32,000 nucleotides of DNA from Nostoc punctiforme PCC 73102 (lineage in GTDB: Bacteria; Cyanobacteriota; Cyanobacteriia; Cyanobacteriales; Nostocaceae), in assembly GCF_000020025.1 (NCBI RefSeq), contig NC_010628.1, positions 4,110,001-4,142,000 of the forward strand. The letters are read 5' to 3'. A program made the position numbers and the translations under genes. Numbering within the stretch: position 1 is the first letter of the stretch; the number at the start of each line of letters is the position of its first letter. The notes under the pieces were generated by a model. It searched no databases. It was given only the letters and a program-made list of their open reading frames with translations, and was not told the origin of the DNA. Shown piece after piece: positions 6,352 to 25,924 of the stretch.

Positions 6352-6355
6352 ACAC

Positions 6356-7533: not shown

Positions 7534-7534
7534 G

Positions 7535-8420: not shown

Positions 8421-8475
8421 AAAAAAAGAAAGAAGAAGTTAAAAGGGTTTGGCGCAAACTCACAAAGAAATGGTA

Positions 8476-11400
8476 TTACTCCCACAACAATACACAGGGT
8501 AAGTCATTGTTTGCTAAACGTAACAGCTCGTAGCCAATGCCAGCAGTTCCTTGGAATAAACCAGGGTTAAATACGGAACTTGGCAAGTTAGCAAATAGTT
8601 GATAAGCTCCAGTTCGGTTGGCTCTAGCTACGACATTCGTCGCATTTTGGAGAGCAATTTGATGCCAATCGGAGCGATCGCAACGTTGAGCGCCCACTAA
8701 CAATACCTCAACTCTACCCATATTGCCACAGCAAAGATGATCGATGGCTTCTAAGCCAAAGTTCTCAGTGGTTCGCAATGCAATTTCAATTTCTTGCTGA
8801 ATTTCTGCTGTGTTCAAAATCTCCAAACTACCCAACCGCGCCAAGCCAATCCCGGCTGCACCATGACACCACTGGCTAGGAAAGGTAACTTTTCCTCCTG
8901 TTCGTTCTGCTTTGTGAGAAACTGGCCAGTTGCCCCTAGACTCAGAAAAGACAGTGCGTTCATACTCAATACCTTCTTGAGCAGCTGCCAAATAAGATTG
9001 ATCTTGGGTAACTGTGTAGAGTCGCAGCAGTGCATAGGCAATTCCTGCGGCTCCGTGAGAAAAACCTGCCAAGGGGATTTTACCAAGGGTTTGCCATGCT
9101 CTGGTTGCACCTGTCTCACTGTAGCGATAAGCTAGTAAATGTTGTCCGCAGGCGATCGCCTTCAGTAAAATATTTTCGTTACCTGTGGCTTGATAAAGGG
9201 ACAATAACCCTAAAATTGCTCCAGCAGATCCGCCAATGATATCCAATTTTTTATCCCCAGCAATCAGTTCTGATGTTATCCAACTGGCTAATGCTTGGGC
9301 ATCTTGTAATAGTGTTTCATCACCCAGAAATTGACTAATTTTCACTAAGGCATAGATCATCGAACCCAAGCCAGTTGCACCACCGATTCCTGCAAAGCTA
9401 GCCATTCGTTGCCGAGATTCTAAATCAAGGGTTTGGATTTGCTGACGCAAGGGTTGTAAACTTTTTAATGCCAACTCGTATGAGCGTGGATCGTCAGTTA
9501 TTTGAGCAAGTGCTGCAAAAAACAGAGCAATCCCACAACGTCCTTCATAAAAACTGTGGTCCAACACTTGCAACCGAAATCGCTCTGCTTCTGGCACCGA
9601 GACTAAGCCAATCCAGTTGATGCTACCATCAAAATCCATAATAGCTCTGGTTTCTAGTTGAGTAGCGATCGCTTGTGCTTCTGCAATCAGTTGTTCTGTG
9701 GTGAGTAATGGTAGTGACTCGGCTTGCCATTTCTCATGTTCTCCAGTTGAGGTTTGCGCTAACTGGGCATAAAAGGAACCTTGAATGATTGCTACTTGTC
9801 GAGCCAAGTCTGTTTCATCCATAGCCAGCAATTGAGCGAGAGTTTGTTGATAACTAGGTTGTTTGAAATACCCAGGAATTGAGAGATGCTCTCCTACACA
9901 CAACTCATCACTAGCAGCACTAGCACTAAAGTAAGGAATATCCAATTGTTCCATCGCTTGCACTTCTGCATTGAATATAGGCCAGGCATTCGGTTTTTCT
10001 TGAGCCACCAAAAATGCACGACTGAGTTGCTCTAGTTCAATACTGTAGTCAACGCCACACTTCAGATAATCCGGTGTTAATACTTTTTGCAAAATTGTCC
10101 CGTAGAGCCGAGTGTGGCGGAAGATAAAACGTACTTGCTGCTTCTGCATAACTCCTAGTGGACTATTGGGCGCTAGTAAAACTTGCTTGTGCGCCATCAA
10201 GAAGCGATACATCTGCTCGAACCCGGCAACAATTTGCGCCTGATAATCATGGGGAGATAAGACGGTATCACCTATGCGTGGGACATTCTTCTCTATAGGT
10301 AAAGTGACAGACTCATAGCGCAAGTACATATCATCGGTATTAATTAGCTGCCAACGAGGAACTTTCCGGGGTGACTGCTGGAGAGCTGTACTACCTAAGC
10401 CACTAATATCGTAAGCAACAGTGCGATCGCTACTCAAGTCCCAACGTGGCAAAAATCCTGTGCGGAGTACGGAGTTCCAAAACTGCTGCATCGCAATTGT
10501 TTCCCACTCTTGAGCATCGGGTGAATTTTCGATCGCCTTAGCTTCATGGTGTAACAAAGTTTCCATGTCAAGTAACACCAGATGTTCACCACTGGCAATT
10601 AAGTTTTCGTAGTGACAGTCTGTTCCCCGTAAAACATAAATCACACACAACAACATTCCAGCTCGTTGATAAAACCTGGCGGCGGCGGCTTCATCAACAC
10701 AGGGCTGATGCTCGACATATTCTACCCAACCGTAATCATCTCGGTTAATAACTTGGATCGCTTTGAAATCTAATAATTGGCTGTGGTGATTGCACCAAGT
10801 CAAAAAGTTGTTAAAAGCTGCTTCTAGTTTTAAATCTTTGGGTTTGTAGACAAGTTTTAACCCAGACTCAAAGGTAAGTAAAATAACGCCTCGTCCTCGC
10901 TTGTGAGGATCGGAAAGAGAGGTTTGAACAGCAGCAACTTTGTCTTTAGCTGATGTTGAGCCAAAAATTTGTTGAATGTCTTTTGTGTCGTGAGCTAGGC
11001 GTTCGATAAATTCGCCAGTGGACTCTACCCAAAAATTTACCGTCGTTGCCACTAACCGACCAAGGACGGGATACTTTTGAAAGAATGTCAGCAATCCATC
11101 TTGCAGGAGTTGATTGACAAATTTTGTGTACTGTGTATTATTGCCGCTCTTTGTTTTCAGTTCCAACAAATTAAGCAAGTTCCTACCAAACGAGCGTACC
11201 TGGGAAAATTCCAAATCCAGTGTCTTACTACAAAGTCTTGCTAATTGTTGTAGCAAACTGCGTTCCAAAGAGCGGTAAGCTGCTTCTGTAAAAATCGATA
11301 ACGGAAGAGAGTCGTGTGTAAGTTGCACAAAACCTAGGCGAGACAATAATTGCTCTCTAGCAACCTGAATAGCTGGTAACAGAAGGTCTTCAAAAGGGAT

Positions 11401-11793
11401 AGAATTTTGTGATTCGATTGGTAAAAATGCTTCTCTTACTGGGATAAATTCTTTAGCAGTTTGGATGATTTGCCCCAAAGTTTCTGCCCAGTCTGGCAAT
11501 AATTGCTTGGCAAGCCGCACACTTCCTAATCGGGGACGAATGCTATCAAGCTCTAACCCATCCCACTGTAAGCGTTTATGCAACATATCCCAACTGCCTT
11601 GTGCCACAACTTGACCCCAGCGATCAATCCTATGGTTAATTTCCTGTTCATGGATGCGATCGCCATCCATGACAAATTGTTCTGTCTGGAGGCGTTCCCC
11701 AAGAAAGCTGGCATTGGCAACGATAATTGCTAGGTCGTGTGGTGTAATCTGCTGAGATGGAACAAGCTGTTGGGTTATGGCTAAATTCTTCAT
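8476..11793 (-). CDS. lanM: Class II lanthipeptide synthetase (LanM), ProcM-like CCG subtype
   Basis: The N-terminal dehydratase (DUF4135-type) blocks are YKPKDLKLEAAFNNFL and DCHYENLIASGEHLVLLDMETL. The C-terminal LanC-like cyclase motifs are SHGAAGIAYAL, WCHGAAGIG and HLCCGNMG. The start is placed at ATG 11793 (MKNLAITQQ...), because the upstream extension to 11871 looks non-coding. Confidence 0.9.
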   Translation of the reverse strand: MKNLAITQQLVPSQQITPHDLAIIVANASFLGERLQTEQFVMDGDRIHEQEINHRIDRWGQVVAQGSWDMLHKRLQWDGLELDSIRPRLGSVRLAKQLLPDWAETLGQIIQTAKEFIPVREAFLPIESQNSIPFEDLLLPAIQVAREQLLSRLGFVQLTHDSLPLSIFTEAAYRSLERSLLQQLARLCSKTLDLEFSQVRSFGRNLLNLLELKTKSGNNTQYTKFVNQLLQDGLLTFFQKYPVLGRLVATTVNFWVESTGEFIERLAHDTKDIQQIFGSTSAKDKVAAVQTSLSDPHKRGRGVILLTFESGLKLVYKPKDLKLEAAFNNFLTWCNHHSQLLDFKAIQVINRDDYGWVEYVEHQPCVDEAAAARFYQRAGMLLCVIYVLRGTDCHYENLIASGEHLVLLDMETLLHHEAKAIENSPDAQEWETIAMQQFWNSVLRTGFLPRWDLSSDRTVAYDISGLGSTALQQSPRKVPRWQLINTDDMYLRYESVTLPIEKNVPRIGDTVLSPHDYQAQIVAGFEQMYRFLMAHKQVLLAPNSPLGVMQKQQVRFIFRHTRLYGTILQKVLTPDYLKCGVDYSIELEQLSRAFLVAQEKPNAWPIFNAEVQAMEQLDIPYFSASAASDELCVGEHLSIPGYFKQPSYQQTLAQLLAMDETDLARQVAIIQGSFYAQLAQTSTGEHEKWQAESLPLLTTEQLIAEAQAIATQLETRAIMDFDGSINWIGLVSVPEAERFRLQVLDHSFYEGRCGIALFFAALAQITDDPRSYELALKSLQPLRQQIQTLDLESRQRMASFAGIGGATGLGSMIYALVKISQFLGDETLLQDAQALASWITSELIAGDKKLDIIGGSAGAILGLLSLYQATGNENILLKAIACGQHLLAYRYSETGATRAWQTLGKIPLAGFSHGAAGIAYALLRLYTVTQDQSYLAAAQEGIEYERTVFSESRGNWPVSHKAERTGGKVTFPSQWCHGAAGIGLARLGSLEILNTAEIQQEIEIALRTTENFGLEAIDHLCCGNMGRVEVLLVGAQRCDRSDWHQIALQNATNVVARANRTGAYQLFANLPSSVFNPGLFQGTAGIGYELLRLANNDLPCVLLWE

Positions 11794-11961
11794 GGTAGTA
11801 GCTAAACAGGAGCAGAAACAATTTGAGTGGACGCTATATTTGTGGGAATAAATACTAATAGCCTGAAACAAACCTTAAGTTTAAATATCAATAAATACTT
11901 GCCATATATATATAATAAGTAAGTTGGCACAATCAGAACAAACTAGACTAGAATCCTTATG

Positions 11962-12140: not shown

Positions 12141-12422
12141 CTAGGCGCAACCTGCTGTACAATGCCAGTCAATATCCTTATTGGTATGATTAGCAGACAT
12201 CATAGCTCCACTAACACTGAGTAATTCCTCTTCACTCAACTCGTAGGATTCTACAGAATTTAAATCTGTCAGTATTTGAGAGATAGCTTCAGTTGTGAAG
12301 TTGTAGCCCTTTTCTGCACCCGCAGCCATAATCAATTTGATGGATTCTGCTAGGTTAGTTGCTTCTTCAATCTTTTGTTGCAGTTGAGCATTTGACAGTA
12401 GTTCTTTGATTTGTGATAACAT
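12141..12422 (-). CDS. lanA: Lanthipeptide precursor with a Nif11-type leader (prochlorosin-like). Predicted core: MMSANHTNKDIDWHCTAGCA
   Basis: The leader MLSQIKELLSNAQLQQKIEEATNLAESIKLIMAAGAEKGYNFTTEAISQ...ELSEEELLSVSGA fits the Nif11 leader pattern. It has a double-glycine-type cleavage motif (E-8, L-7, V-4, G-2, A-1). The core has 2 Cys and 3 Ser/Thr. A strong SD lies upstream. Confidence 0.85.
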   Translation of the reverse strand: MLSQIKELLSNAQLQQKIEEATNLAESIKLIMAAGAEKGYNFTTEAISQILTDLNSVESYELSEEELLSVSGAMMSANHTNKDIDWHCTAGCA

Positions 12423-13712: not shown

Positions 13713-13856
13713 TTGATAACAAATCTAGCTAATACCCGTGACAAATCACCAGGTTTAAAGTTCCCCTCAGTAGGTTGCCGATTTTGGTAGGCTGGTTCCA
13801 GATAAAGATATTTACAATAAATATTTGTGAATTGGGTATGAGGTTGAATTGCCCAG

Positions 13857-14297
13857 TCAAAAATACAGGCTCCAGTTAATAATGGCAAGGGAAAAATCTC
13901 TATTTTGCACCTCGGAATGACTAAAATCAGCATCAGTTAAGTTCGCTTTTCTAAAAGATGTTCCAGGATTGCTCTGAATAGATTGAATTATCCATTTGAA
14001 AATACGAAAGGTGATGATTGTAGAAATGACCATCAGCAGTAAAAGGAAAAATCCCTGGACACTGCTTCCATCACTGAAACTAGAAGTGCTAATCATGGCA
14101 AGCCCAACCGTAAAACTGCTCATTACCGCAAACAGTATAGTAATGACTCCAATACCTAAGAAATTTGTGACTTCTGGAAAGTTGGAAGTAATACTATCTT
14201 GGATAAATATCTGGAATATTAGAGCCAATAGCGGCATAGAACCCAAAAAGAAGTTAAATATTTTATCAAAGCGATCGCTAAATAAGACACTTGACAT
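13857..14297 (-). CDS. Hypothetical 3-TM membrane protein with a short pentapeptide-repeat-like C-terminal stub
   Basis: Three hydrophobic stretches are followed by RKANLTDADFSHSEVQNRDFS. The tail is too short for a normal pentapeptide-repeat domain, so the gene may be truncated. Confidence 0.4.
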   Translation of the reverse strand: MSSVLFSDRFDKIFNFFLGSMPLLALIFQIFIQDSITSNFPEVTNFLGIGVITILFAVMSSFTVGLAMISTSSFSDGSSVQGFFLLLLMVISTIITFRIFKWIIQSIQSNPGTSFRKANLTDADFSHSEVQNRDFSLAIINWSLYF

Positions 14298-14385
14298 CTG
14301 GCCTACAATCCAGGGCTATTTCATTCTAAATGTAGACGCGATATGGTAAGATGCAGCGCCAGTTCTACTTCAAGCATCTATTACC

Positions 14386-14460
14386 GTGTCTGAAATCGAA
14401 ATTATCAAAGCTTTTGCAGGTCTAAAAGACCCCCGTCAACATGAGCGCCTCGAAATATAA
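14386..14460 (+). pseudogene. Possible relic of an ISAs1-family transposase N-terminus (24 codons)
   Basis: It translates to VSEIEIIKAFAGLKDPRQHERLEI*. The xxFxxLxDPR pattern resembles the N-terminal domain associated with ISAs1 DDE transposases. It is followed by a palindromic repeat, GGACGGGCAAGATGCCCATCC. Confidence 0.25.
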
Positions 14461-14585
14461 AGGACGGGCAAGATGCCCATCCCACAAAACAAACAAAATC
14501 ATCCCGCAAATATGCAACGCCAAATGTTTCTATCAATCAACAGGTTGTCCTTGGTATGCTGAGATGCGTCTAAATTATATAAATC

Positions 14586-14630
14586 GTTGATGGTTGACGG
14601 TTGACAGTCATCAGTCAACAGTCATCAGTT
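14586..14630. repeat. STRR-type heptamer repeat (TTGATGG TTGACGG TTGACAG TCATCAG TCAACAG TCATCAG)
   Basis: Read directly. It ends 16 nt before the ATG at 14647. Confidence 0.8.
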
Positions 14631-14646
14631 AAATGCGTAATAGTTT

Positions 14647-15867
14647 ATGATAGCGGCAATTCGGCAAAAAATTCGTAGTGCTTACGCGGATAATCCACAC
14701 TTAGCACTATGTCACTGGTTTCATGAGTTCGACAATTATGTGGATAGTGACAACTTTGCAGTGTGTGAAGGATTACTTAGCGAAATCTGCAAGGAAGCTT
14801 ATCCTCCACTTGCTGCAAAAGAACAAGCTTATGTAGATAGTCGTGAAGGTGTCCTGTGGCTAAAAAAAGGCATTGAGCATCATAAACAGAGTCGCTTTGA
14901 AGAAGCGCAAAATTACTACCAAAAGAGTCTAAAAATTCAGCAGCGTGTCCAATGCAGAGATGCTCAAACTAATGTGAAGGTATTTCAAAGTGTGTTGGCA
15001 GAGGATTGTCTGAATGGCACACCATCGTACCTAAAATTAGACAGTTTTGCTCAAGAGTTGCATGTGCTAGGAGGTAGTGAATCGCTGTTGTGCGATCGCC
15101 TCAGCACATCTACCACACCAGAGGAGCGTTCTCAAATCCTGTTTGCAGCCGTGCAAGCTCGTCTGACTAAGCCACTTGTACAAGCCTTTAGATCGCCAGA
15201 CGAGCAGACGCGGATGATGGGTATAGCAGGATTAGGACGTTTTAAACAAATCAATGAGACGCAAGTTCTTCTAGAAGGTTTGTACGACTCTAACTGGTTT
15301 GTGCGTTGGCGAGCTGCTGAAGCACTGGCACACCAAATAGTTATCTGTTCAGCCTGTAATAGTGAAAACCCAATTGGGATAAAGTCTTGTCAAGCCTGTC
15401 CAGCAGATATCAACTTACCTGAAGTTACTACAGACTTATTTATTCAAAAATTATGTGCAGTGCTAGATCGAGAAACATCTCCAGATGTCCGCCGGGTACT
15501 GGTGATGCTGTTGGGACAAACAAACAACACTGGTGTAACTCTAACATTGCTAGCAGCACTCGACGATTCCGATGCAGATGTAAGGATTGCTGTGATTGAA
15601 GCATTGGGAAAAATTGGTGTTCCCTCTGGTACAATCGAGAAGCTTCGGAATGTAAGTGATGGCAAAAGCTTATTAGGCGGTAGCATCAAGGAGACGTTGG
15701 AAAAAATTATCGGCACGATCGCAGACCAGTCACTTCGTTCCGAAACGGCGATAGCCACGTACATCGTTTCTCAAGATGGAGATGGCGATTATGGCACCAT
15801 TAGTAAGGCGATCGCCAGTGTGCCACCAGGCAGCCGTATCCTTGTGCAGCCTGGTTTATACAACTAA
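14647..15867 (+). CDS. TPR-like/HEAT-repeat protein with an internal zinc ribbon; N-terminal part of a gene interrupted by an in-frame TAA
   Basis: PBS-lyase-type HEAT repeats are present (LYDSNWFVRWRAAEALAHQ, LDDSDADVRIAVIEALGKIG), as is a CxxC-x11-CxxC zinc ribbon (ICSACNSENPIGIKSCQACP). It ends ...DGDGDYGTISKAIASVPPGSRILVQPGLYN*, which is the usual first strand of a beta-helix domain. Confidence 0.75.
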   Translation: MIAAIRQKIRSAYADNPHLALCHWFHEFDNYVDSDNFAVCEGLLSEICKEAYPPLAAKEQAYVDSREGVLWLKKGIEHHKQSRFEEAQNYYQKSLKIQQRVQCRDAQTNVKVFQSVLAEDCLNGTPSYLKLDSFAQELHVLGGSESLLCDRLSTSTTPEERSQILFAAVQARLTKPLVQAFRSPDEQTRMMGIAGLGRFKQINETQVLLEGLYDSNWFVRWRAAEALAHQIVICSACNSENPIGIKSCQACPADINLPEVTTDLFIQKLCAVLDRETSPDVRRVLVMLLGQTNNTGVTLTLLAALDDSDADVRIAVIEALGKIGVPSGTIEKLRNVSDGKSLLGGSIKETLEKIIGTIADQSLRSETAIATYIVSQDGDGDYGTISKAIASVPPGSRILVQPGLYN

Positions 15868-15957
15868 GGACTAATTATCAATAAGCCACTAGAAATTATT
15901 GGTGCAGGTCCGATTACAGATATTATTATCGAGAGTCATAGCTCCAGTTGTATTTTA

Positions 15958-16770
15958 ATGCAGACGAAATACGCTCTCGTGCGTGGCTTTACATTGCATG
16001 GAAAAGCGGAAAAATGCTACGTGGTAGATATTCCCCAAGGACAGATCGTCTTAGAGGATTGCGACATTACTAGTGATTATCTTTCTTGCGTGGCCATTCA
16101 TGGTTATACAGCCAATCCTGTTATCCGTCGCTGTCAAATTCACGATGGCAAAAACAGTGGTATTTATTGTTGGGAAAATAGCCAAGGGATAGTCGAAGAC
16201 TGCGATATTAGAAACAATGCCACAGGTGAGGTGACAATTGAACAGGGAGCTAATCCGACGATTCGCCATTGTCGTATCTATGATGGTAAACAGTGCGGCA
16301 TTCTGATCCGCGATCGGGGTCGAGGAACGGTAGAAAATTGTGAGATTTTTGGTAATAGCTTCGCAGGAATAGAAATTAATACGGGATCTGACCCGAAAAT
16401 TCACAAATGTCGCATTTACGCTAGTAAGGCGAATGGTGTCTCTGTTTATCAGCAAGGACGAGGCACTATTTTTGATTGTCAAATTTTTGATAATGCAAAT
16501 GCGGGGGTGGCAATTGCAAAAGCTGCCGACCCCACAATTTACCAATGCCTAATTAATCAGAATCAATATCAGGCAGTTTGGGTATATGACAATGGTGCAG
16601 GTAGAGCAGAAAATTGTGATTTAACTCGCAATGGTGATGGTGCATGGAACATTGGTGCCAACTGTGAGGTATACCGTAGGGTAATCAAGAATAAAAACGA
16701 ATTAGTTCAGGACTTACGCAAAATCACGGAAAAACGAACCGCAAAGGACGCAAAGGACACAAAGGAATAA
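15958..16770 (+). CDS. Right-handed parallel beta-helix (PbH1/CASH repeat) protein; C-terminal part of the same interrupted gene
   Basis: It is in the same frame as 14647..15867, and the frame is open from 15868 (GLIINKPLEIIGAGPITDIII...). Repeats of about 23 aa follow the pattern C.I.dn...GI.......I..C.I. The last ~25 codons are encoded by a dispersed repeat element. Confidence 0.75.
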   Translation: MQTKYALVRGFTLHGKAEKCYVVDIPQGQIVLEDCDITSDYLSCVAIHGYTANPVIRRCQIHDGKNSGIYCWENSQGIVEDCDIRNNATGEVTIEQGANPTIRHCRIYDGKQCGILIRDRGRGTVENCEIFGNSFAGIEINTGSDPKIHKCRIYASKANGVSVYQQGRGTIFDCQIFDNANAGVAIAKAADPTIYQCLINQNQYQAVWVYDNGAGRAENCDLTRNGDGAWNIGANCEVYRRVIKNKNELVQDLRKITEKRTAKDAKDTKE

Positions 16771-16796
16771 GGTTTCAGAGAGTTATTGCGTAAGTC
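16711..16796. repeat. MITE-like small element: 11-bp terminal inverted repeats (GACTTACGCAA / TTGCGTAAGTC) flanking dispersed-repeat copy 2
   Basis: The inverted repeats were read directly. The core at 16728..16767 matches 8381..8420. The element supplies the stop codon of the beta-helix ORF. Confidence 0.5.
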
Positions 16797-16934
16797 TTAT
16801 AGTTAACAAAGTTTAGTGCTTTAATTCGGCTACCTAACGACGGCAGAACGTTTTGGGTCGGGGTCTAAATCCCCGTCACAAAACTTAATTACGTTAGCGT
16901 AGCGGGGCGCAGCCCATTACGAATTACGAATTAT

Positions 16935-19250
16935 TTAACTGGCTTGAGGAATTCTCAGTTTCTCCATACTCCAAGGGTCTTGTTTTTCCTCTCCCAGGTA
17001 AATATTTACAGATTTAATTTCTTCTTGCAATTGATTGGTTGCCAGTTGTTCTGCGTTTTCCTTAAACTCTTCTTGCATTGCCTCTTTCAAATCATTTAGT
17101 TCCAGACCAAGTTGCTGACTACCACGAGTAGCAATCTGCCGTTTCAAAGCTATCTTCTTGCCTCGAGAAACAATGCTCACTAAAACTGCTCCACTAATGA
17201 AAATGCTGAGAGGAAATTTGTAATACTTCCCTGCTTTTGTTACCGCTTCTAAGTAACTATTAACTGAAAAGAGGAATTCTACTGTATCTACAATTATTTC
17301 CTCTGCTAGCTGCTCTCGTAGTGCTACTTCCTCAATAAATTTTCTGACTTGCTCATCTGCACATAAATTAATTAAATTCTGGCTTTCTTGCTTTGCCTTA
17401 CGAACATCAAATTTATGAGGAATTGCGGCAATTATTTGGTCTAGTAATCTAGTCAGATTTTCACCCAACTTGTTGAGTGTTTTTTGCACAACATGAGGTT
17501 TAAAGGTCAAAACCGGAACAGTAGAAACTGTTGAATCGGTAAAGTTTGTTAAACCGTAGGGCTGTAGTGGCAAATCAGGTGTTAAGTGAAGCGCCAAAAT
17601 TGCTATTGCTGAATCACGCGAAGGCAGATCAATCTTAATTTTAATATCTAAGCGTCCAGGTCGTTGAATAGCTGGATCAATCATGTCTGGTCGGTTACTA
17701 GCTCCGATAATCACTATATTTTCTGTGGCTTCAACTCCATCCATCTCAGCCAAAAATTGAGGCACAATAGTTGTTTCTACATCAGATGAACGTCCTGAAC
17801 CCCTAGTGCGAAACATTGCCTCCATTTCATCAAAAAAGATAACTACTGGCGTATAGAAAGTAGCACGGCGTTTTGCTTCTGCAAATATTTTGCGGATGCG
17901 GTTTTCTGTTTCACCAACATACTTGTTGAGAAGTTCTGGTCCTTTGACATTTAAGAAAAAACTGCGGATTCCATCCTCACGTCGTAGGATATTCTGAATT
18001 CGTTCTAAAGAGTTATTGATATCTTCCAAATCGATATTACTCAGGCGTAAATCTGCTACTAATTGCTGCTGTGTCTCCTCTGGAGAAATATTGTTTTGGA
18101 TCAGAGCAACGGTTTCTGGCGATCGAGAATTATTGGCGAGTTGTTGATAAGCAACTAGAGCATCCTGATTATCAGGATTTTTGCTGAGTTCTTGATAGAG
18201 AATAATTTTTTGTTCTACCTCCTGAAGATGGCTGCGGATGCTTTGCGTCAAACTATTAGCTACTGCCTTGGCAATCATGGTTTTACCACAGCCAGGAGGT
18301 CCATATAATAAAATTCCTTTGGGACGGACAAGTTGATATTCCTCAAACAACTTTTGGTAGACGTAGGGTAGTTCGATCGCATCCTTAATTGCTTCTGTCT
18401 GATCATCTAGTCCCCCGATGTCTTCGTAAGTAACATCTGGCACTTCTTCCAAAGTTAAGCCGCCAGTTTGATAGCTTGGCAGTTTTTCAAAAGCAAACTG
18501 TAGCCTTGTATCTACCCGGATCAAGTCCCCAATTTCTACACCTTCTTGAAAAAGACGATCGCTAATTTCTACGACAATACCGTCATTCCCACCACTACGA
18601 ATATGTAGGCGAGGCTTAACTTTAGCTATTGCCAATGTCTGACTTTCATCAAGTTGTACTATGTTTCCTGGATGCAGGGACTTACGCAAAGATAGCGCAC
18701 AATTAACCTCAAACTTATTACCATCTAGCGACTGTACTCGCACTGGCTTATCATCTGTGGGAACATTCATCACTCTGGCTGTGCCAACCGGACTAATCAC
18801 GTTAACGACTTCTGCCGTTTCCCCACGCATAACCTGTTCATTGTCTACCCCTACAACGTTTAAAACTTTGTTCAAAATTAGTTGTTGGCCTTCAGATAGT
18901 ACTTCTACCGGAACCTCTTCCGTAGCCAGTTTGACTTCAAATCTTTGTCCACGCACACCAACAACTATCTCACGTTCATTTTCGCTACTAAATTGAGTAG
19001 ATCTAGTTGGGCATTTACCGAGAAAGACCCCATATTCCAAAGGAGGTTCTATTAATTCGGCGCTCTGTTTTTGCAATTCGTCAATTTTTGACTTCAAACG
19101 GGGAAACTCTTCTAGTGGTGTTCGGATTTTATCCAAAAACTGTTGGAGTTTTATCAGTGAACTACGCTCTTCTGGCAGACTATTATTTTTGATTATCTGT
19201 AAAATAAGAGTTTTCCAACTGTCAAGGTTCTGTAAATCAATATCGTCCAT
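16935..19250 (-). CDS. Mpa/ARC-like (proteasomal-ATPase-type) AAA+ ATPase: coiled coil, OB region, one AAA module, C-terminal domain
   Basis: Recalled from memory, Mycobacterium Mpa contains [76 protein letters not shown] and RPGRLDVKIKIERP. This ORF has [76 protein letters not shown] and [14 protein letters not shown]. The start is placed at ATG 19250; the ORF-track start at 19271 is a TTG that overlaps the IS terminus. Confidence 0.85.
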   Translation of the reverse strand: [771 protein letters not shown]

Positions 19251-19286
19251 TTGTGAACTCGCTGACTTCAAGGGGCGACAATGGAG

Positions 19287-20093
19287 CTAAAGTGCTTTCT
19301 GTATAAGCTTCATAGCCCTTAAACCCCTGAGATAAAAGCTCTGCTTATTGCGAATGGAAGCGACCAGTTCCTCAACCCATGCTTGACATTCATTCCAAGC
19401 GACTATCCAATTTTGACCATATAAACCTATCCAAAAATTACTATGTCGTTTAGAAGTTCGACTTTTTTCTTGAGTGCGACAAATATAAGATTCTTGTTTT
19501 TGCAATTTAGTTCTTTGTCCGTGTAACCAAGCACTTGTCATGGCTAAAGCAATTAAGAAAATTAAACGCACAAGTCTATCAGGATTAGCTTTAGAACCTT
19601 CGAGATTATAACCACCTGTTTTACAATCACGGAACATAGCTTCAATGCCGAAACGCGCTCCGTAGATTTGAGCAGCAGTTTCTAAATCAGGCAGATTAGT
19701 TAATAAATACCAAGGTTCTGGTTCCTGTTTATTGCGATATTTTCTTTTCCAATATACTGCTAAATTAAATCTGCCAAACCCTCGTTTTTGAGTCAAATTG
19801 ATACCCAAATAAAACTGGCGGATTCCTGGATAAATATCAATGCTGCTTCAAGGCTGAAATTTTTGTCTTTTCTCTCGGAAGGTTGTGTCCTTTTTTTGAC
19901 GGAATACAAAGCTGAGATTCTTCCTGTGTAACCACTCCGCTAATTCTATACTATGAAACTCTCTATCGCCAATAATCACTATTTTGTAATTTTTTAACAA
20001 GCGAATCACTGGGCGTAAAACTTTTTGTTGCTCTTGGAAGTTACTGCAACCATCTTTTTCTAACAAGCACCAATATACCTGAAGGGGCGACAT
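19287..20093 (-). pseudogene. IS4-family transposase pseudogene: 5'-truncated copy with an internal in-frame TGA (19848..19850)
   Basis: ORFs 19848..20093 and 19287..19808 are in the same frame. They align with residues ~115-382 of the intact neighbour (DREF, FGIEAMFRDCKTGGYNLE, RHSNFWIGLYGQNW). The first ~5 codons of the upstream ORF derive from the terminus of the adjacent IS. Confidence 0.8.
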
Positions 20094-21285
20094 GAAGCCT
20101 ATAAAGCTGACTGTATAAGCTTCATAGCTCTCATCCCTTGTAAATAATTCTCTAGTTTATGACGACTTAATCGCATTAAATCTTGAACTAAACTCCAACA
20201 ATCACCAATGAAATTAACCCAGTTCTGTGCATAAAGACCGATATAAAAGTTACTATGCCTTCTGTGAGAACGTCCATATTCTTTGGGACGTGCCACATAT
20301 TTTGCAATTCCTTTACTCTTAATATTCTGACCTTGTAATGTAGCAATAGTGTAAACTAATGAGATGATTAAAACTAAAGCAATAAACCGCTTACCTTCCA
20401 CATTTGTCTTCTCTAAATTGTAACCGCCACTTTTAAAATCTCTAAACATCTCTTCTATATCAAAGCGCTTTTGATATGCCGGAATCGCCGTTATTTTACT
20501 ATTCATGTTAGTTAAAATAAACCATCCTTCTTTGGCTTTGTTTTGACGGTAATTCTTTTTCCATTTGCAAGCCACATTAAATCCCTTCACTTGTTTAGTT
20601 TTTGTTAGCGTTGCATCTGATACAAAAAAAGATGTTCCTGGTTTTAAACCTAAATCTTTTATTTCGCACCATAAATGAGCTTTCAACTCAATATTCTCAT
20701 TTTTCTTGAGTCTCAAACAAAACTCAAACCCTTGTTCATCAAGCCATTCCGCCAAGCTCACTGAACAAAACTCTCTATCTCCTAACACTACCGTTTTATA
20801 GTTTTTAAATAAGGGAATTATCTTTGATAATGCCTTAGTTTGTTCTGATAAGTTACTACTACCTAATTTTGCTAAAAGCTTAAAGTATATCGGTATAGCT
20901 CTTTTTTGAAAAATTACACTAATCATTAGTAGATTTTTTCTTTTCCAATTCGTCCTATCAATTGCTAAATAGATTCGGTGATTTCCGAGGAAAGTTTGAG
21001 CTAACCATCGTTCAATTATGGGAAACCATAATTCTTCTATATTCAATATTGGTAATGATAGAAACCTTTGTAACTTCTTCCGTCTCGACTGGCATTGAAT
21101 GAATAATGGTCGCGACTCTGATATTTTCTCTAGTTTCACATCTTTGATATTTTGTACTACGTTAATCACCAGCGTCAGAAATATTAATTCGGACTGTGAA
21201 AGTAAACTTTGTAGATGCTTCTGGTATAATTCAGGTAACATTTTCAACAGATAGGTCTTATTGACAATACTGACCTATCTTTTTT
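20082..21285 (-). mobile_element. IS4-family insertion sequence (intact transposase); right end defined, left end approximate
   Basis: The 11-mer AAGGGGCGACA lies exactly 6 nt beyond the transposase stop in both IS copies (20082..20092 and 19270..19280), which marks the shared terminus. No convincing matching inverted repeat was found at the other end. Confidence 0.5.
20099..21241 (-). CDS. IS4-family DDE transposase
   Basis: DREF block, and the exact IS4 Y(2)R(3)E(6)K signature in AYQKRFDIEEMFRDFK. The start is placed at ATG 21241 (MLPELYQKH...). Confidence 0.85.
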   Translation of the reverse strand: MLPELYQKHLQSLLSQSELIFLTLVINVVQNIKDVKLEKISESRPLFIQCQSRRKKLQRFLSLPILNIEELWFPIIERWLAQTFLGNHRIYLAIDRTNWKRKNLLMISVIFQKRAIPIYFKLLAKLGSSNLSEQTKALSKIIPLFKNYKTVVLGDREFCSVSLAEWLDEQGFEFCLRLKKNENIELKAHLWCEIKDLGLKPGTSFFVSDATLTKTKQVKGFNVACKWKKNYRQNKAKEGWFILTNMNSKITAIPAYQKRFDIEEMFRDFKSGGYNLEKTNVEGKRFIALVLIISLVYTIATLQGQNIKSKGIAKYVARPKEYGRSHRRHSNFYIGLYAQNWVNFIGDCWSLVQDLMRLSRHKLENYLQGMRAMKLIQSAL

Positions 21286-21298
21286 TACCATAATTCGC

Positions 21299-21670
21299 TC
21301 AACTTAATACAGCACAAAGGCTTTCGGGTGCTTGTCCCCCCTTCAGATATTGACCTTCTATTAATAGATCGGGCATGAACACAATATTAGTTTCTTGATT
21401 GCTTTTTATACTTTGGCTGGTTAAATCTACCTTTTCCCATTTATACGCACCAGGGGCAGATTCATCAGGTACAAGATTGTAAATGTCTTTACCAACTTCA
21501 ATTGCGATTTTACTTGCTTCTTGAGCTTCTTTGAGTTTTTCGAGAATTACTTTAGTTATCTTAGTAAGTGCATTGATGAGGGTTTTACTTAATTCCCGAC
21601 TTGTTTTAATTGCAGTATCGGCTGTATTTAAATATGATTCATTAATTTGAGTGTGTCTGGAGTCAAACAT
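21299..21670 (-). CDS. Hypothetical protein, last gene of the T4SS operon before the IS block
   Basis: An ORF of 123 aa on the operon strand. No family was recognised. Its 3' end is about 15-50 nt from the IS, so truncation cannot be excluded. Confidence 0.4.
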   Translation of the reverse strand: MFDSRHTQINESYLNTADTAIKTSRELSKTLINALTKITKVILEKLKEAQEASKIAIEVGKDIYNLVPDESAPGAYKWEKVDLTSQSIKSNQETNIVFMPDLLIEGQYLKGGQAPESLCAVLS

Positions 21671-21756: not shown

Positions 21757-23625
21757 TTAGAAAAAGCTCTTGTATGCATCAACAGGTAACGGTGCATTGC
21801 CTGCTTGTACGGGTGCTTGTGGGATAGGAAACTTCCGATCTACTTCCTTGACTCGCAAATCTAAATCTTCCTGTGTGGGCTTTTTCTGGGTACTTTTCCT
21901 AGCAAGCTCCTTAATGACTTTATCCCACTTAGTATCGTTTTCTTGTTCGAGTTCGATAATATATTTCGGGATTTTGATATTTTTTAAGATTGGTACTGAA
22001 CCCTCATTTTTATTACTATAAGCTGGGTTAATAAATAGACATTTACCAGGTGGTAATTTTAGGAATTGGGCAGGCTCAAGTAGCTTCCGAGTCCGTTCTT
22101 GTTCGCTGATAGATGTGCTGGCTTTACCCCCTCCAGTTGAGCGAGATTTTTGTTTATATTTAATTTCCTCTTCACCTAAATATGCAGAAAATAATCTAGC
22201 AGATTCTTCTTCACCAGGATTAAAAACAAATTTTGTGCCGCACGCACCGAGGATGGCTTTAGAGATTTCTTTACCATAAATCTTTTCAAGCTGACCCATA
22301 TTTTGCCAACCCAGGATACCGCAGAATCCTTCGGAACGAGATTCGTTAAGCCATTTAAATAAATCTGGAAGGAAGATACTTGGCAACTCGTCAAGACATA
22401 CTACTAATGGGCCATCTTCCTTGCCTTTTTTGGCGATACTGCGGGAAACTACCATGTGGAGAATGCTGGTCATCAGGGGGCTGACAGCATCGCGGCGTTC
22501 GCGGTCTAACCCGAAGATAATCATCTGTTTGCGTTTTACCTCCAGGGGAAGGGTTGTTTTACCGACAAAGCATCCCAATGTACCCCTTGCCATGAACCGG
22601 GTGAACATCAATGAAGCGCTACCAGCGATACCCGCCACGGTTTTTTCGGAGCCAGCCGAACTAAATAATTGACCAAAAGCTATCTTAATCCAGGGGTTTA
22701 ATGCTGCTGCCATCAAGCGTTCGACCATCTTCTCGCTGGAAAGTATTGCCGCAGCTGTCATAATATCAGCGCGGTCGCCAAACTCCTTGGTTAACATTAA
22801 GATAGCCTGCGTCAGCTGATCGCCCGCAGGGCCAAAGAATGCATCCTCAGACGCATTACCTAACAGGCGGAAGTTCTTGTTAATAACCGTAGCTAACTGC
22901 CGTGCGGTTTCAGCATCAGAGGAATCGCGCAAGAAATCGATGGGATTACATACCTCCGATTCGGGAAATCCCGGTGCAAAGATATGTACGTCATACCCCT
23001 TTGATTTGGCATAACTGGCGATTTTGGCAAGACTTGCATACTTGAAGTCATATAGTACGATACCAAAACCTTGGTCAATTGCTGAGTAAATCATCGGGTT
23101 GATAGCCGAGAATGATTTACCGCTACCAGGTGCGCCAATTACAGCAGTTCCGCGTTGGACATCAGGTACATAAACTGGAACTCCCCCACTCCCCTTGGGT
23201 GATTTTTGACCCTTGTATTTGTGTATCCCGATATACAGACTAGCACTATCACACTTAGGAGCTAAGATTTGCTTCAAGGCTTTTTTCTTAGCTTGGGCGG
23301 TTTCCTTTGCTCCACCCCAATAGCTAGTAGCAAGCTTGCCTTTTTTACCATTACTAAAAAGCTGTAAAAGCAACAATAAGCCAATTCCACCCGCAAGTGC
23401 CAAACCTTGAGGTGACATGAGCTTATCTGTATATTTACTAAAGTCAGTATTGCTATTTTTATGAGTAGCTTTTACTTCTCTAACAGTCTTAGTTTTAGCA
23501 GTTAAAAACAGATAATTATTCATATTAATCTGTGTTAATTTGGCATGAGGAAATCGAAGAAATATGCGATGAAGTGAAGCTGCATATTTCTCCGTTATTT
23601 GTGTGGTGTGTCCTCTCCAAGTCAA
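21757..23625 (-). CDS. Type IV secretion coupling protein (VirD4/TraG/TraD-like T4CP)
   Basis: N-terminal TM segment (LALAGGIGLLLLLQLF), Walker A (GAPGSGKSF) and Walker B-like (LVVCLDELPSIF). The true start is uncertain; an ATG at 23523 (MNNYLF...) is plausible. Confidence 0.85.
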   Translation of the reverse strand: MTWRGHTTQITEKYAASLHRIFLRFPHAKLTQINMNNYLFLTAKTKTVREVKATHKNSNTDFSKYTDKLMSPQGLALAGGIGLLLLLQLFSNGKKGKLATSYWGGAKETAQAKKKALKQILAPKCDSASLYIGIHKYKGQKSPKGSGGVPVYVPDVQRGTAVIGAPGSGKSFSAINPMIYSAIDQGFGIVLYDFKYASLAKIASYAKSKGYDVHIFAPGFPESEVCNPIDFLRDSSDAETARQLATVINKNFRLLGNASEDAFFGPAGDQLTQAILMLTKEFGDRADIMTAAAILSSEKMVERLMAAALNPWIKIAFGQLFSSAGSEKTVAGIAGSASLMFTRFMARGTLGCFVGKTTLPLEVKRKQMIIFGLDRERRDAVSPLMTSILHMVVSRSIAKKGKEDGPLVVCLDELPSIFLPDLFKWLNESRSEGFCGILGWQNMGQLEKIYGKEISKAILGACGTKFVFNPGEEESARLFSAYLGEEEIKYKQKSRSTGGGKASTSISEQERTRKLLEPAQFLKLPPGKCLFINPAYSNKNEGSVPILKNIKIPKYIIELEQENDTKWDKVIKELARKSTQKKPTQEDLDLRVKEVDRKFPIPQAPVQAGNAPLPVDAYKSFF

Positions 23626-23661
23626 AAGTTAAAGAGGATAAATTCTTCTATGATTGCCTTT

Positions 23662-25074
23662 TTACTTTTTAGGGACTGTGAGAGGTGTACCAAGAATAAT
23701 TGGGTCTATTTCGCGGTAGGTGAAGAAGGGAACAGGGCCAATGAAGTAGGGCGAGCAGCCCAAGTCAACCCATCCTCGCTTGCAAATACGGAAGAACATC
23801 GCGGTGGTGATACTGCCGTCAGCTTCGTTAATATCCCAGATGACTTGTTTAAATGATTTCCCAAAGGGATGACGGCCTGTGGGTTCTTTCCCACCGTTGA
23901 GGCTGCCCAAGATGCCGAATCCGCCTTTAACGTTTTGGTCTTTGCCGGACATCCACTGTGCGCCAGTAACGGTATCGCTACCCGAAACTTCGATGTGACC
24001 GCACTTTTTCTCGCACGGAACATTAAACTCAGCTTGATAGCTACCGCTTATTGACTTCCAGCGTCCGCTTTCAAGCGAACCGAGGGGTAAGTCTACTTTG
24101 CCGATAAAGCTAACATCGGGAATTGGTACACTGGGGAACTGGTCAAATGGAACATCAGCCAATCCCGGAACCTTACTAATTGTTGTGTTTTGCCAGTTAG
24201 TAAAGTCCTTTAGCTGTGCATCCTCAATACCGGGGATGCTGGTTAGTTTATACTTATCGAGTTTGACGTACTTACCGAGTTCCACTTCTCCCAGTTCGGG
24301 ATAATTGTCTAGCACTTCACCAACAGTTTGGTAGCTTGCGGTGCTGCCTGTTACTTTGGTCACTAGTTCTTTAATTGGTGGGATGGCTCCAACTTCTGAA
24401 TCTTCAAGCTTGGGAATTGCTTCGGTGAGGTCTTCGAGTGTTTGCCACTCTAGTGTCTCAAAATCTGACAGTTTGAGATTTTTGAGTTGAACGCCCGTGA
24501 TGTTGGCGATATCTTCAAGCGTGAAATCTTCAATATTGAACTCAGTTGCTTCAAAATCACCTAATTCCATGACTTCGGAAAGGCTTTGTCCTGCGCTCCA
24601 GGTGCGTGTCTCCTTCATCCCAGGGTTTTTGATATTAGGAAATTCGGCGCTGCCAGCACCGCCAAATTTCATATTTTTGAACGTGATACTACTCCAGTCA
24701 GGAGTAGGTGCGCCGTTGACGTATTTAGTTGCAACGGGCTGTGGCTGTTTGGTTTGTTTTGTTTTATCTATCGAAGTGTTCAAATTTGAATACTTCGATG
24801 GAACTGTTTGAGCTACTGCTTTCTCACCGAATAGGAGACTGCCGATATTGTAGCTACCTCCAAACCGGATTAACCCGTGTAGGGCAAGTCCTGCAATAAG
24901 TCCTGCAACCATCAGGTAGCGTAAGTTATTAAATTTTTCCATCCGATACTCAAGCGCTCGGTTGGTTTTGTTGTGAGTGGTTTCTTGACTTGCAGCTCTC
25001 ACTGGTACAATCGCAGTTACCTCGGTTGTGGTATCTAAAATTTGGTTGTTAGAGGTCAGATTTTCGTTATACAT
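23662..25074 (-). CDS. Membrane-anchored T4SS-operon protein of unknown function (470 aa)
   Basis: It has a single N-terminal TM (YLMVAGLIAGLALHGLI), an acidic repeat-like middle and a Cys-containing C-terminal domain. No family was recognised. Confidence 0.5.
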   Translation of the reverse strand: MYNENLTSNNQILDTTTEVTAIVPVRAASQETTHNKTNRALEYRMEKFNNLRYLMVAGLIAGLALHGLIRFGGSYNIGSLLFGEKAVAQTVPSKYSNLNTSIDKTKQTKQPQPVATKYVNGAPTPDWSSITFKNMKFGGAGSAEFPNIKNPGMKETRTWSAGQSLSEVMELGDFEATEFNIEDFTLEDIANITGVQLKNLKLSDFETLEWQTLEDLTEAIPKLEDSEVGAIPPIKELVTKVTGSTASYQTVGEVLDNYPELGEVELGKYVKLDKYKLTSIPGIEDAQLKDFTNWQNTTISKVPGLADVPFDQFPSVPIPDVSFIGKVDLPLGSLESGRWKSISGSYQAEFNVPCEKKCGHIEVSGSDTVTGAQWMSGKDQNVKGGFGILGSLNGGKEPTGRHPFGKSFKQVIWDINEADGSITTAMFFRICKRGWVDLGCSPYFIGPVPFFTYREIDPIILGTPLTVPKK

Positions 25075-25255
25075 CACTGTTATTTAAAAATTATTGATTC
25101 AAGAGAAAGTTTGTTTTATCTGTAGTTGGTGTTATTAGAGGGTTATTGCGCTGTGGTGGTATTTCTAAGAAGCGCTTTCCACCCAGCAGCATGAGTTTTT
25201 CAACCAACTGCATTGATACTCCGGTGCTGCTGGCGGCGACAACAAGTTCCTCTCC

Positions 25256-25924
25256 TTACGATCGCAACTCAACAAGTTGGTTCAGACGCTTCCAAAGCTT
25301 GCTATCTGTAGTAACCCACTGATTTTTAAGGGCAACTTGCATTCCTTTAGCGATATGTCTGCTATCAGATAATGCCGTGTAACTGACCTTTGGTTTTACT
25401 TCTTCAGGTTTGCTGGGAGTATCGCCAATAATTTCAATTTGGCTGTACTCTGGTGTGCCACTGCCCGCTAGAATCCGAAAGTGATAGCTTTTCCTTGTTG
25501 ACCCAGATTCGGTAATCACCGTCATGTGCGCCCCGTAAGAAGCTTGTGGTAAACCGGGGATTTTGACTGTCTCGATGCGGCGAATGTGAATTAGTCCAGC
25601 ACCCGTACTGTTGCTAGAACACTTACCCAAGCCTTCAAGACATCCGTCTACATCAAAAACAAACCTAGATGGGTCATCTAGCCAGATTTTCTTGATGATT
25701 TCTCTGGTGTTGTAGAACGATATTGATACCCCATGTCCAGGCCAGACCTTAACTGTCTGCAATTGGGCATTTTCCCCTGACACCTGGGACGCTGCAACTT
25801 GACGGATAGTATTTGCCAATACAAGTTGGCTTGGTGCAAGCACGGAGGCAATGGTGAGGCACCCGCCAAAGGCGATCGCGCAGGGCATCATTAAACTAAA
25901 GTCGGCTATATATCTGAATTTCAC
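25256..25924 (-). CDS. VirB9/TrbG-like periplasmic T4SS component (tentative)
   Basis: It has a signal-peptide-like N-terminus (MMPCAIAFGGCLTIASVLAPSQLVLA). The beta-sandwich pattern VKVWPGHGVSISFYNTREIIKKIWLDDPSRFVFDVDG...YHFRIL resembles the VirB9 N-domain. Its GTG start overlaps the upstream stop (GTGA). Confidence 0.5.
   Translation of the reverse strand: MKFRYIADFSLMMPCAIAFGGCLTIASVLAPSQLVLANTIRQVAASQVSGENAQLQTVKVWPGHGVSISFYNTREIIKKIWLDDPSRFVFDVDGCLEGLGKCSSNSTGAGLIHIRRIETVKIPGLPQASYGAHMTVITESGSTRKSYHFRILAGSGTPEYSQIEIIGDTPSKPEEVKPKVSYTALSDSRHIAKGMQVALKNQWVTTDSKLWKRLNQLVELRS

Follow-up and report, generated by a model that had tools for sequence, protein, structure and literature searches.

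A Mpa-like unfoldase gene of Nostoc punctiforme PCC 73102, probably stranded from a proteasome-less tagging system that combines Pup with a ubiquitin-like protein

The stretch of the Nostoc punctiforme PCC 73102 chromosome analysed here (32,000 nucleotides, NC_010628.1 positions 4,110,001 to 4,142,000; hereafter the window, whose own coordinates are used throughout) carries on its reverse strand a gene for an AAA+ ATPase (16935..19250) that is a real yet unusual relative of Mpa, the Pup-dependent ATPase also known as ARC. The gene probably belongs to a rare tagging system without a proteasome, as its unfoldase, and the PCC 73102 copy is best regarded as a stranded remnant of that system, not as a stand-alone invention. 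That it is a remnant is concluded from the points at which homology to an intact Nostoc locus breaks off, from a GAA-to-TAA change in the neighbouring gene and from a TAT-to-CCT change in the ATPase gene. As predicted from gene content, the complete system comprises Pup with two paralogous Pup ligases, one nearer Dop and one nearer PafA; a YukD-type beta-grasp ubiquitin-like protein (Ubl) with its own E1 (ThiF), E2 (UQ_con) and Prok-RING E3; and two JAB peptidases, a SIR2-CHAT effector, a Pepco protein and a HEAT/beta-helix protein.

The open reading frame (ORF) of the ATPase is intact and spans 16935..19271 of the reverse strand (778 amino acids) if read from a TTG codon, but this TTG falls inside the junction with an insertion sequence (IS), and its counterpart in the orthologous Nostoc locus is TTA. 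Translation natively begins at the ATG at 19250; from there the gene has 771 codons and a stop, and the 771-residue product is identical to ACC81756.1 (WP_012409734.1, UniProt B2IZY5) of N. punctiforme PCC 73102. Pfam recognizes both proteasomal OB domains (Prot_ATP_ID_OB_N with 25.8 bits versus a cut-off of 23.4, Prot_ATP_ID_OB_C with 26.9 versus 23) and one AAA module, the domain match being split, with no peptidase domain. The top NCBIfam model is pup_AAA (TIGR03689), with 453.3 bits over four stretches; as the equivalog cut-off is 504.75, the protein is not within the canonical Mpa/ARC family. Competing models score 204 bits (PAN, NF003069, cut-off 500), 197 (CDC48, cut-off 803) and 136 (FtsH, cut-off 600). 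The nearest sequence with a solved structure is Mpa of Mycobacterium tuberculosis (E 5e-93), the C-terminal domain of which is weakly matched by residues 659-742. When an AlphaFold2 (AF2) model of the monomer (100-sequence alignment, mean predicted local distance difference test score [pLDDT] 86.7, predicted template modelling score 0.78) was compared with known structures by Foldseek, ranks 1-30 were all M. tuberculosis Mpa chains (E 1e-29 to 1e-25), and the next family, the Rpt subunits of the 26S proteasome, followed from 1e-15 or weaker. An earlier model (17 sequences, pLDDT 72.6, poor AAA core) gave a similar gap, 1e-25 versus 1e-12; PAN and Rpt chains stand at 1e-12 to 1e-15 versus 1e-29 for Mpa. 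The similarity to Mpa is well beyond chance and spans all domains, and no family is closer than Mpa in sequence or in predicted fold.

All catalytic motifs are intact: Walker A (GPPGCGKT, residues 317-324), the aromatic pore loop (KYVG, 443-446), Walker B (FFDE, 472-475) and the arginine fingers (RPGRLD, 530-535). The N-terminal region (19050..19235) is helical and a predicted coiled coil according to the AF2 model and the alignment, with one helix at residues 6-21 and another of 42 residues at 26-67 that ends at the conserved EPPLEYG; these helices are the predicted counterpart of the coiled coil with which Mpa binds Pup. There follow a first OB domain (residues 72-135, 18846..19037, from Pfam and the AF2 strands), an extra beta-barrel (residues 144-210, 18621..18821) and a second OB domain (residues 214-257, 18480..18611, from Pfam). 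The AAA module contains an insertion of about 81 residues after the Walker A helix (residues about 341-427, 17970..18230), and a helical insertion lies in the lid (residues 556-660, 17271..17585); like the barrel, both were delimited by alignment, motif spacing and the AF2 model. The protein closes with an Mpa-type beta-grasp-like domain and a tail (16935..17270, from the Protein Data Bank [PDB] match and the AF2 model).

Motif spacings were measured over 120 homologues, which were also aligned. From Walker A to the NVKGPELL block there are 109 residues, versus 27-28 in canonical Mpa proteins of 603-610 residues, and therefore 81 are extra after Walker A; from RPGRLD to the FxSGA motif of the lid there are 148 versus 80, and from PPxxYG to Walker A 248 versus 178. 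Three spacings being enlarged, there are three insertions and not two. The barrel between the OB domains is predicted to have six strands and is missing from canonical Mpa in the alignment; searched alone, it found as its sole weak PDB sequence matches the OB domains of PAN and of an Rpt subunit (E 0.05-0.5), and it is probably a third OB-type barrel, specific to the clade. The insertion after Walker A is predicted to form a lengthened helix alpha1 and three more helices, and the lid insertion five helices with the motifs LPxxxDxRxA and RExLAE; neither has a meaningful match among PDB sequences. The lid insertion amounts to about 68 residues in the window protein and up to about 125 in other members of the clade. 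The C-terminus reads ...KLRIPQAS and has no GQYL or HbYX end, whereas the canonical matches end in GQYL or GAYL. An initial reading of the DNA without database searches (the sequence-only reading) had described an AAA+ protein similar to Mpa/ARC through the coiled coil, the OB region, the AAA module and the region after it, where the Mpa-type C-terminal domain lies; this is supported, the coiled coil as a prediction, and Mpa is clearly nearer than any other AAA clade. It was also right about some 80 extra residues after Walker A, an extended region after the AAA module and the missing proteasome-docking tail; its list of insertions was accurate for the two that it named, and overlooked the third, of about 70 residues, between the OB domains.

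The window protein belongs to a clade of Mpa-like ATPases of about 750-850 residues, in which all three insertions are present and the YL tail is missing. Their tails are variable, and a conserved tyrosine sits at least three residues before the end; in PCC 73102, proline 768 stands where tyrosine is invariant in the nine other members compared. The clade is a rare one: among 1.84 billion proteins, just 25 representatives (clusters at 50% identity) match a profile of its lid insertion. A neighbour-joining tree of the conserved core, midpoint-rooted with no outgroup and no bootstrap, places the window protein in a group of proteins of about 800 residues, apart from the canonical GQYL-tailed Mpa group, and within that group P0001-P0005, which are of the Nostoc type and include the window protein as P0001, are nested close to proteins of Anaerolineae and Thermofonsia and to metagenomic ones. 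In the same tree, a small group of other Mpa-like proteins (P0095, P0098, P0099, P0100 and P0110), with a spacing of 187 residues between Walker A and the pore loop (about 160 inserted), joins canonical Mpa and keeps a C-terminal RYL or RLL. Back-translated clade patterns found 80 loci in genome contigs, predominantly of canonical actinobacterial Mpa and none informative for the clade.

Ten loci of relatives were inspected, 10 kb on each side of the gene: eight of clade members (L081-83, L084, L085, L086/87, L088/89, L090, L095 and L100), one of a short variant (L096) and one of the Nostoc sp. DedQUE07 genome (L098). Outside cyanobacteria, in Chloroflexota, Acidobacteriota and others, the AAA gene heads an operon with the order AAA, (WD40), Pup_ligase, small ORF, Pup_ligase, (HEAT), Prok-RING_1, ThiF, UQ_con, YbjN-like, YukD, JAB, (CHAT). 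The part of this operon from the first Pup ligase through the small ORF, the second ligase, Prok-RING and ThiF to the E2 gene was found in seven of the ten loci; together with the AAA gene the operon is carried by L084 (Anaerolineae), L085, L086/L087 (Pyrinomonadaceae), L088/L089, L095 and L096, where the AAA protein is a shorter relative of 650 residues and a small DZR/Zn-ribbon protein is encoded immediately upstream of it. At least 35 clade members are on the same contig as a Pup-ligase match, as deduced from identical sizes of the longest contig; the probability that sizes such as 494,761 or 132,888 agree by chance is negligible.

The small ORFs between the ligase genes end in ...FVRRFRQETGE, ...FVRAFQQEGGQ, ...NRQKGGE and similar sequences (GGQ, GGE, TGE, SGE or IGE). 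They align with a Pup protein that Pfam recognizes, and both the (I/L)D(D/E)IL helix and the EEFVRxFxQxGG(E/Q) end are common to them; between these two elements a segment of about 25 residues is inserted. As judged from their ends and this alignment, they are Pup. A 20S proteasome gene (PF00227) was found in none of the ten loci, whereas a control locus with a canonical, GAYL-tailed Mpa of 603 residues (L097) has the order Mpa, Dop, Pup, PrcB, PrcA, PafA, with two PF00227 genes. The YukD-type Ubls encoded at L081 (20345-20656), L090 (14460-14771), L098 (18672-18962) and L085 (21129-21389) carry ...LVPEMTAG near the C-terminus, followed in L085 by the stop codon and otherwise by a short tail (GGGVYNESNL or QGGRQ), a pattern that would be expected of a precursor trimmed by the neighbouring JAB peptidase.

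Two of the loci (L081-83 and L090) come from metagenomic relatives of the window protein with 65-69% identity. There, the AAA gene is convergent with a large HEAT/beta-helix gene, the product of which adds Clp_N in one relative and WD40 propellers in the other, and upstream on the strand of the HEAT/beta-helix gene are genes for Pepco, (SIR2-)CHAT, a protein of 377-379 residues with a JAB-like C-terminus, JAB and YukD. With the Pup ligase of L095 as query, 'PafA2 family' proteins of a Nostoc sp. metagenome-assembled genome (MAG) and of Nostoc sp. DedQUE07 were retrieved. The DedQUE07 locus (L098) encodes Pup_ligase, Pup (…AEDFVRSFIQKGGQ), Pup_ligase, HEAT, Prok-RING, ThiF, UQ_con, YbjN, YukD, JAB, a 378-residue protein and SIR2/CHAT; its YukD, JAB and 378-residue proteins are 61-66% identical to their AAA-adjacent counterparts in L081 and L090, and its Pup ligase shares a single contig of 112,340 bp with an AAA gene whose product is in the same 90%-identity cluster as P0001.

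The intact Nostoc operon was reached in the MAG GCA_036916915.1 (L100, contig JBALFP010000043.1) by means of its 378-residue protein. After a Pentapeptide-AAA gene, L100 encodes the Dop-like ligase (562 residues), Pup (89; …AEDFVRSFIQEGGQ), the PafA-like ligase (684), HEAT (124), Prok-RING (255), E1 (398), E2 (234), a YbjN-like protein (317), YukD (96), JAB (191), the 378-residue protein, SIR2-CHAT (710) and Pepco (116), thirteen genes from Dop-like to Pepco; these are followed by the HEAT/beta-helix gene (682) and, convergent to it, the gene for an Mpa-like AAA protein of 771 residues. Pup and two genes of the Pup-ligase family are therefore at the same locus as the orthologue of the window's ATPase. 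By NCBIfam scores, all below the cut-offs, the first ligase paralogue is nearer Dop (418 versus 372 bits) and the second marginally nearer PafA (324 versus 317 bits). The Pentapeptide-repeat/AAA fusion (689 residues, not Mpa-like) precedes the Pup operon in L098 as well as in L100 (1-514), and in L098 a DO-GTPase1/DO-GTPase2/vWA cluster lies ahead of it, cluster and fusion together covering 1-9919. This fusion was considered as a replacement for Mpa and rejected, only generic AAA motifs being common to the two and the true Mpa-like gene being at the opposite end of L100.

Positions 16008-18353 of L100 align with 16926-19271 of the window at 97.9% nucleotide identity, the AAA proteins being likewise 97.9% identical, and 13841-16018 align with 14522-16707 at 93%. 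The convergent neighbour of the ATPase gene in the window (14647..16770, forward strand) accordingly corresponds to the HEAT/beta-helix gene: it encodes TPR/HEAT repeats, a zinc ribbon and a right-handed beta-helix, and 14650-16569 matches the L081 and L090 genes with 47-49% identity in tblastn. It is in one frame, with a single in-frame TAA at 15865-15867 where the Nostoc MAG has GAA. Its zinc ribbon (15346-15399, CSACNSENPIGIKSCQAC) has the C-x2-C-x3-N-x6-C-x2-C spacing of the RanBP2/NZF type, is without the Trp and TF residues of ubiquitin-binding NZFs and has no Pfam match. Between the convergent stops, 11 nucleotides apart in the MAG, the window has about 216 bp extra (16708..16925), which change the C-terminus of the beta-helix ORF relative to the MAG; the segment contains tandem heptamers (GCAAAGGAC-like three times, ACGAATT twice) and a GC-rich hairpin (GGGTCGGGGTCTAAATCCCCGTCAC, which occurs only here in the window), and could represent a small, dispersed repeat.

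Leftwards, the similarity to the complete operon (edge at 14522..14646, located by blastn, tblastn and the junction sequences) stops at 14522, which corresponds to a point just past the Pepco stop codon in L100, and the 13.2 kb spanning Dop-like to Pepco are missing to the left of it. None of the thirteen L100 operon proteins has a tblastn match in the 32-kb window, which means no Pup and no Pup ligase, and Pfam found no 20S gene (PF00227) among window ORFs of at least 100 residues. The linkage of Prok-RING, ThiF, UQ_con, YukD and JAB is present in L100, L084-L089, L095 and L096 and absent from the window. Although the PCC 73102 proteome is in the source, there was no N. punctiforme protein among the Pup-ligase homologues listed, which are cluster representatives only, and none in the 90-member family of the 378-residue protein.

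On the right, homology to the intact locus ends at 19268-19271, 18-20 nucleotides upstream of the ATG, and an IS end begins there. It belongs to a truncated IS4-type (DDE_Tnp_1) element (19269..20074, reverse strand), the transposase fragments of which are co-directional with the ATPase gene. A related, intact IS (20075..21350, reverse strand; 25-nucleotide inverted repeats, 382-residue transposase) has inserted within this older copy, to which it is about 75% similar. The 310 bp preceding the gene in the relative occur nowhere in the window, and therefore more than a simple IS insertion has occurred. A scan for promoters and terminators around the gene found nothing above the expectation from shuffled sequence. 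The sequence-only reading had placed an IS terminus about 19 nucleotides from the ATG, had noted that no Pup, Dop/PafA or 20S genes are in the window and had suspected that the promoter was lost, and each of these observations agrees with the comparison, the native upstream region having been replaced by the IS end. Its suggestion that operon partners had been lost is correct as to the loss and mistaken as to the place, which is not upstream behind the IS but beyond the convergent HEAT/beta-helix gene. It had stated that Pup-proteasome systems are described for Actinobacteria and Nitrospirae and not for cyanobacteria; Pup genes do occur in cyanobacteria, as the Pup and two ligases of the Nostoc MAG and the DedQUE07 genes on the same contig as an AAA gene show.

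Between PCC 73102 and the Nostoc MAG, the ATPase gene has a pairwise ratio of nonsynonymous to synonymous substitution (dN/dS) of 0.16 at a dS of 0.058, a ratio that is not assignable to the PCC 73102 branch alone; during most of the brief period since the two diverged, the ORF has therefore been kept under purifying selection. Its 16 amino acid differences fall roughly half on each branch, and so there is no obvious excess on that of PCC 73102. Both points speak against decay being far advanced. One of the changes there is the substitution of Tyr768 by proline, which took two adjacent nucleotide substitutions (TAT to CCT). The dS of the HEAT/beta-helix gene, 0.155, differs from the 0.058 of the ATPase gene, a contrast that may reflect recombination, with differing histories of the two genes, or a weakened constraint on the HEAT/beta-helix gene.

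In the complete system, six subunits of the ATPase would assemble into a ring as in Mpa/ARC, and paired N-terminal coiled coils would grip Pup-tagged proteins by the part of Pup that forms a helix. The disordered N-terminus of Pup would then be threaded through three stacked tiers of OB-type barrels into the AAA pore, where the KYVG loops would translocate the chain while ATP hydrolysis unfolds or extracts the substrate. Because the clade has no HbYX/GQYL tail and no locus has a 20S gene, the output would not be proteasomal; it would probably be remodelling, inactivation or extraction of the substrate, or its hand-over to another protease, much as with ARC in Corynebacterium, which acts independently of a proteasome, and with Cdc48 in eukaryotes. 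We infer the hexamer, Pup binding, threading and proteasome independence by analogy with Mpa/ARC. The HEAT/beta-helix protein, replaced by WD40 in other phyla, is probably an adaptor or a substrate, since WD40 or HEAT/beta-helix genes are constant companions of the ATPase gene; one companion protein fuses WD40 to HEAT/beta-helix, and another adds Clp_N. The SIR2-CHAT and Pepco genes point to a conflict or cell-death system, and control of the SIR2-CHAT effector is a possible purpose of the unfoldase. PADLOC returned solely generic AAA, E1, JAB, SIR2 and CHAT matches, and thus this is not a catalogued defence system.

The ATPase may read Pup, the YukD Ubl or both. In the most far-reaching version of the proposal, Pup, handled by the Dop/PafA-like enzymes, and the YukD Ubl, conjugated by E1, E2 and RING and trimmed by JAB, would converge on one proteasome-independent segregase that gates a SIR2-CHAT suicide or immunity effector, and the PCC 73102 copy may then persist through a second, tag-independent use of the unfoldase. 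Bacteria would then have an equivalent of the ubiquitin-Cdc48 logic, one that unites two tagging chemistries thought to be alternatives; the idea is offered as a speculation that we are inclined to doubt.

Several points weigh against the proposal of a stranded unfoldase from a proteasome-less tagging system. Function is assigned to the clade from sequence and a structural model, and the model, being monomeric, is silent on ring assembly and on where the insertions would lie in a hexamer. L081 and L090 hold YukD, JAB and CHAT genes beside the AAA gene and no Pup genes within 10 kb, so Pup may not be the sole or chief tag. A 20S gene is possible elsewhere in the operon-bearing genomes, beyond the 10 kb covered on each side. 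As for PCC 73102, the loss of components outside the window is judged from homologue lists made up of cluster representatives, and the ORF is intact with a low pairwise dN/dS, so that retained function is possible.

The last point is the basis for supposing that the protein works in PCC 73102 as an autonomous unfoldase, alone or with new, unlinked partners. The 771 codons and every catalytic motif have been kept under a pairwise dN/dS of 0.16, and the co-directional transposase fragments could provide read-through transcription. This dN/dS is, however, not specific to the PCC 73102 branch, the MAG orthologue adjoins a full operon and that of DedQUE07 is on the same contig as one, a stop codon interrupts the conserved HEAT/beta-helix neighbour, the native 5′ region is gone with no promoter-like signal above chance, and the clade-invariant tyrosine has become proline through two adjacent substitutions. 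A stand-alone unfoldase with a new partner, which the sequence-only reading had considered possible, is consequently unlikely in this truncated locus. That the gene was recently orphaned and is already non-functional, a pseudogene in waiting that has not yet met a disabling mutation, is a more serious possibility, if not one that we expect: decay surrounds it in the form of the nonsense codon, the nested ISs, the 216-bp insertion and Y768P, and a dS of just 0.058 to the intact relative means that little time has elapsed since divergence. Against this, there is no frameshift or stop within 2.3 kb, and about half of the 16 amino acid differences arose on the MAG branch.

The remaining explanations concern the identity of the protein. 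A classical proteasome activator, that is, an Mpa orthologue docking on a 20S core encoded elsewhere, would account for the overall Mpa architecture and for nearest structures that are Mpa and Mpa-20S complexes, but it is very improbable given a C-terminus that is not GQYL/HbYX, a clade tyrosine at least three residues from a variable end, PF00227 genes in none of ten loci versus two in the control locus, and a score under the TIGR03689 equivalog cut-off. Cyanobacteria are not known to encode 20S proteasomes. Membership in another AAA clade (FtsH, Cdc48/Cpa, PAN or CbbX) with a superficial likeness to Mpa can be given practically no credence. The AAA core is common property, and the PDB sequence search gives E-values down to 1e-88 for Cdc48/VCP chains; yet pup_AAA outscores the PAN, CDC48 and FtsH models (453 bits versus 204, 197 and 136), the protein has a single AAA module with both proteasomal OB domains and a match to the Mpa-specific C-terminal domain, and the Foldseek E-values of Mpa and the next family differ by at least ten orders of magnitude.

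Elsewhere in the window, conjugative-transfer genes, including a type IV secretion system coupling protein and a TrbI-like protein, extend across 21757-31999 on the reverse strand, and among them is a restriction-modification pair consisting of an N6_Mtase/HSDR_N fusion and a specificity subunit. The idea that the ATPase gene is cargo of a conjugative element is conceivable but found no support: clade members are on none of the plasmids in PLSDB, where matches were solely to canonical actinobacterial arc genes, and the GC content is unremarkable. At 8476-11871 on the reverse strand is the gene for a class II lanthipeptide synthetase (DUF4135 and LANC_like), and near it, on the same strand, is an ORF of 93 residues (12141-12422) that ends in ...HCTAGCA and has no Pfam match; its N-terminal half we take to resemble a Nif11-type leader. 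An ISAzo13-type transposase is present as two ORFs (1273-2504), and a C-terminal fragment of glucose-6-phosphate dehydrogenase (87-860) lies at the window edge.

Pupylation is usually seen as a route to the 20S proteasome in Actinobacteria, Nitrospirae and a few other phyla, chemically unrelated to ubiquitination. The association described here places a distinct Mpa-like clade in one operon with what is, on the evidence of its sequence, a bona fide Pup, with ligases and with a full E1-E2-RING-Ubl-JAB cascade; this operon reaches Nostoc, Chloroflexota and Acidobacteriota, has CHAT or SIR2-CHAT in several loci and has no proteasome gene nearby. Searchable literature contains no link of pupylation to YukD or Prok-RING, nor of Pup or PafA to Nostoc, and no characterization of the family in cyanobacteria. 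An analysis of Dop/PafA evolution lists other phyla with homologues, and its text does not include Cyanobacteria, Chloroflexi or Acidobacteria (PMC7947786); these three are likewise not mentioned in a 2008 analysis of pupylation (PMC2588565). The Pup and Ubl system around this clade therefore appears to be undescribed in the searchable literature, an earlier description outside it being possible. If both tags cooperate on one unfoldase, tests become possible of the part played by Pup where there is no proteasome, of the way in which ubiquitin-like cascades of bacteria are read, and of a role for the system in immunity or programmed death of multicellular bacteria. Nostoc sp. DedQUE07, which NCBI lists as a named strain and not as a MAG, is a possible experimental entry point. 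For the window itself, the consequence is that the PCC 73102 gene is probably a leftover of a Pup and Ubl system.

Among known systems, Mpa/ARC of M. tuberculosis and Rhodococcus is the closest to the ATPase, with a coiled coil ending in PPxxYG, tandem OB domains, a single AAA module, the KGPELLNK[FY]VGETE and RPGRLD motifs and the C-terminal domain in common; in the clade generally, and in the near-identical Nostoc orthologue, the gene also adjoins Dop-like, Pup and PafA-like genes. The clade differs by its three insertions, by having neither a GQYL tail nor prcBA in the locus, and by its separate position in the midpoint-rooted, unbootstrapped neighbour-joining tree. Corynebacterium glutamicum is not known to have a 20S proteasome, and its ARC is a Pup-dependent unfoldase reported to disassemble pupylated ferritin. 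It is thus a precedent for proteasome-free, Pup-dependent unfolding, but it is an actinobacterial ARC of canonical length and is not known to have E1, E2, RING, YukD, JAB or CHAT genes attached. The UBact/Pup-proteasome clusters of Gram-negative phyla such as Nitrospirae and Verrucomicrobia, to which the control locus L097 corresponds, likewise have a Pup-type tag, Dop/PafA paralogues and Mpa outside Actinobacteria, whereas PrcB/PrcA and an Mpa of about 600 residues with a GQYL or GAYL tail are kept there. CBASS Cap2/Cap3, Bil and Cdc48/p97 resemble the system in having E1/E2 and JAB beside SIR2 or CHAT effectors, or an AAA unfoldase that is not a protease cap, but none has Pup or an Mpa-type ATPase. 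Burroughs, Iyer and Aravind reportedly predicted prokaryotic RING-E1-E2-YukD-JAB operons in 2011. The same Pfam families (Prok-RING_1, ThiF, UQ_con, YukD and JAB) are present here, with YukD ending in ...TAG(G) and a short, presumably removable tail; the difference is that here a single operon joins them to Pup, to a pair of Pup-ligase paralogues and to an Mpa-like ATPase.

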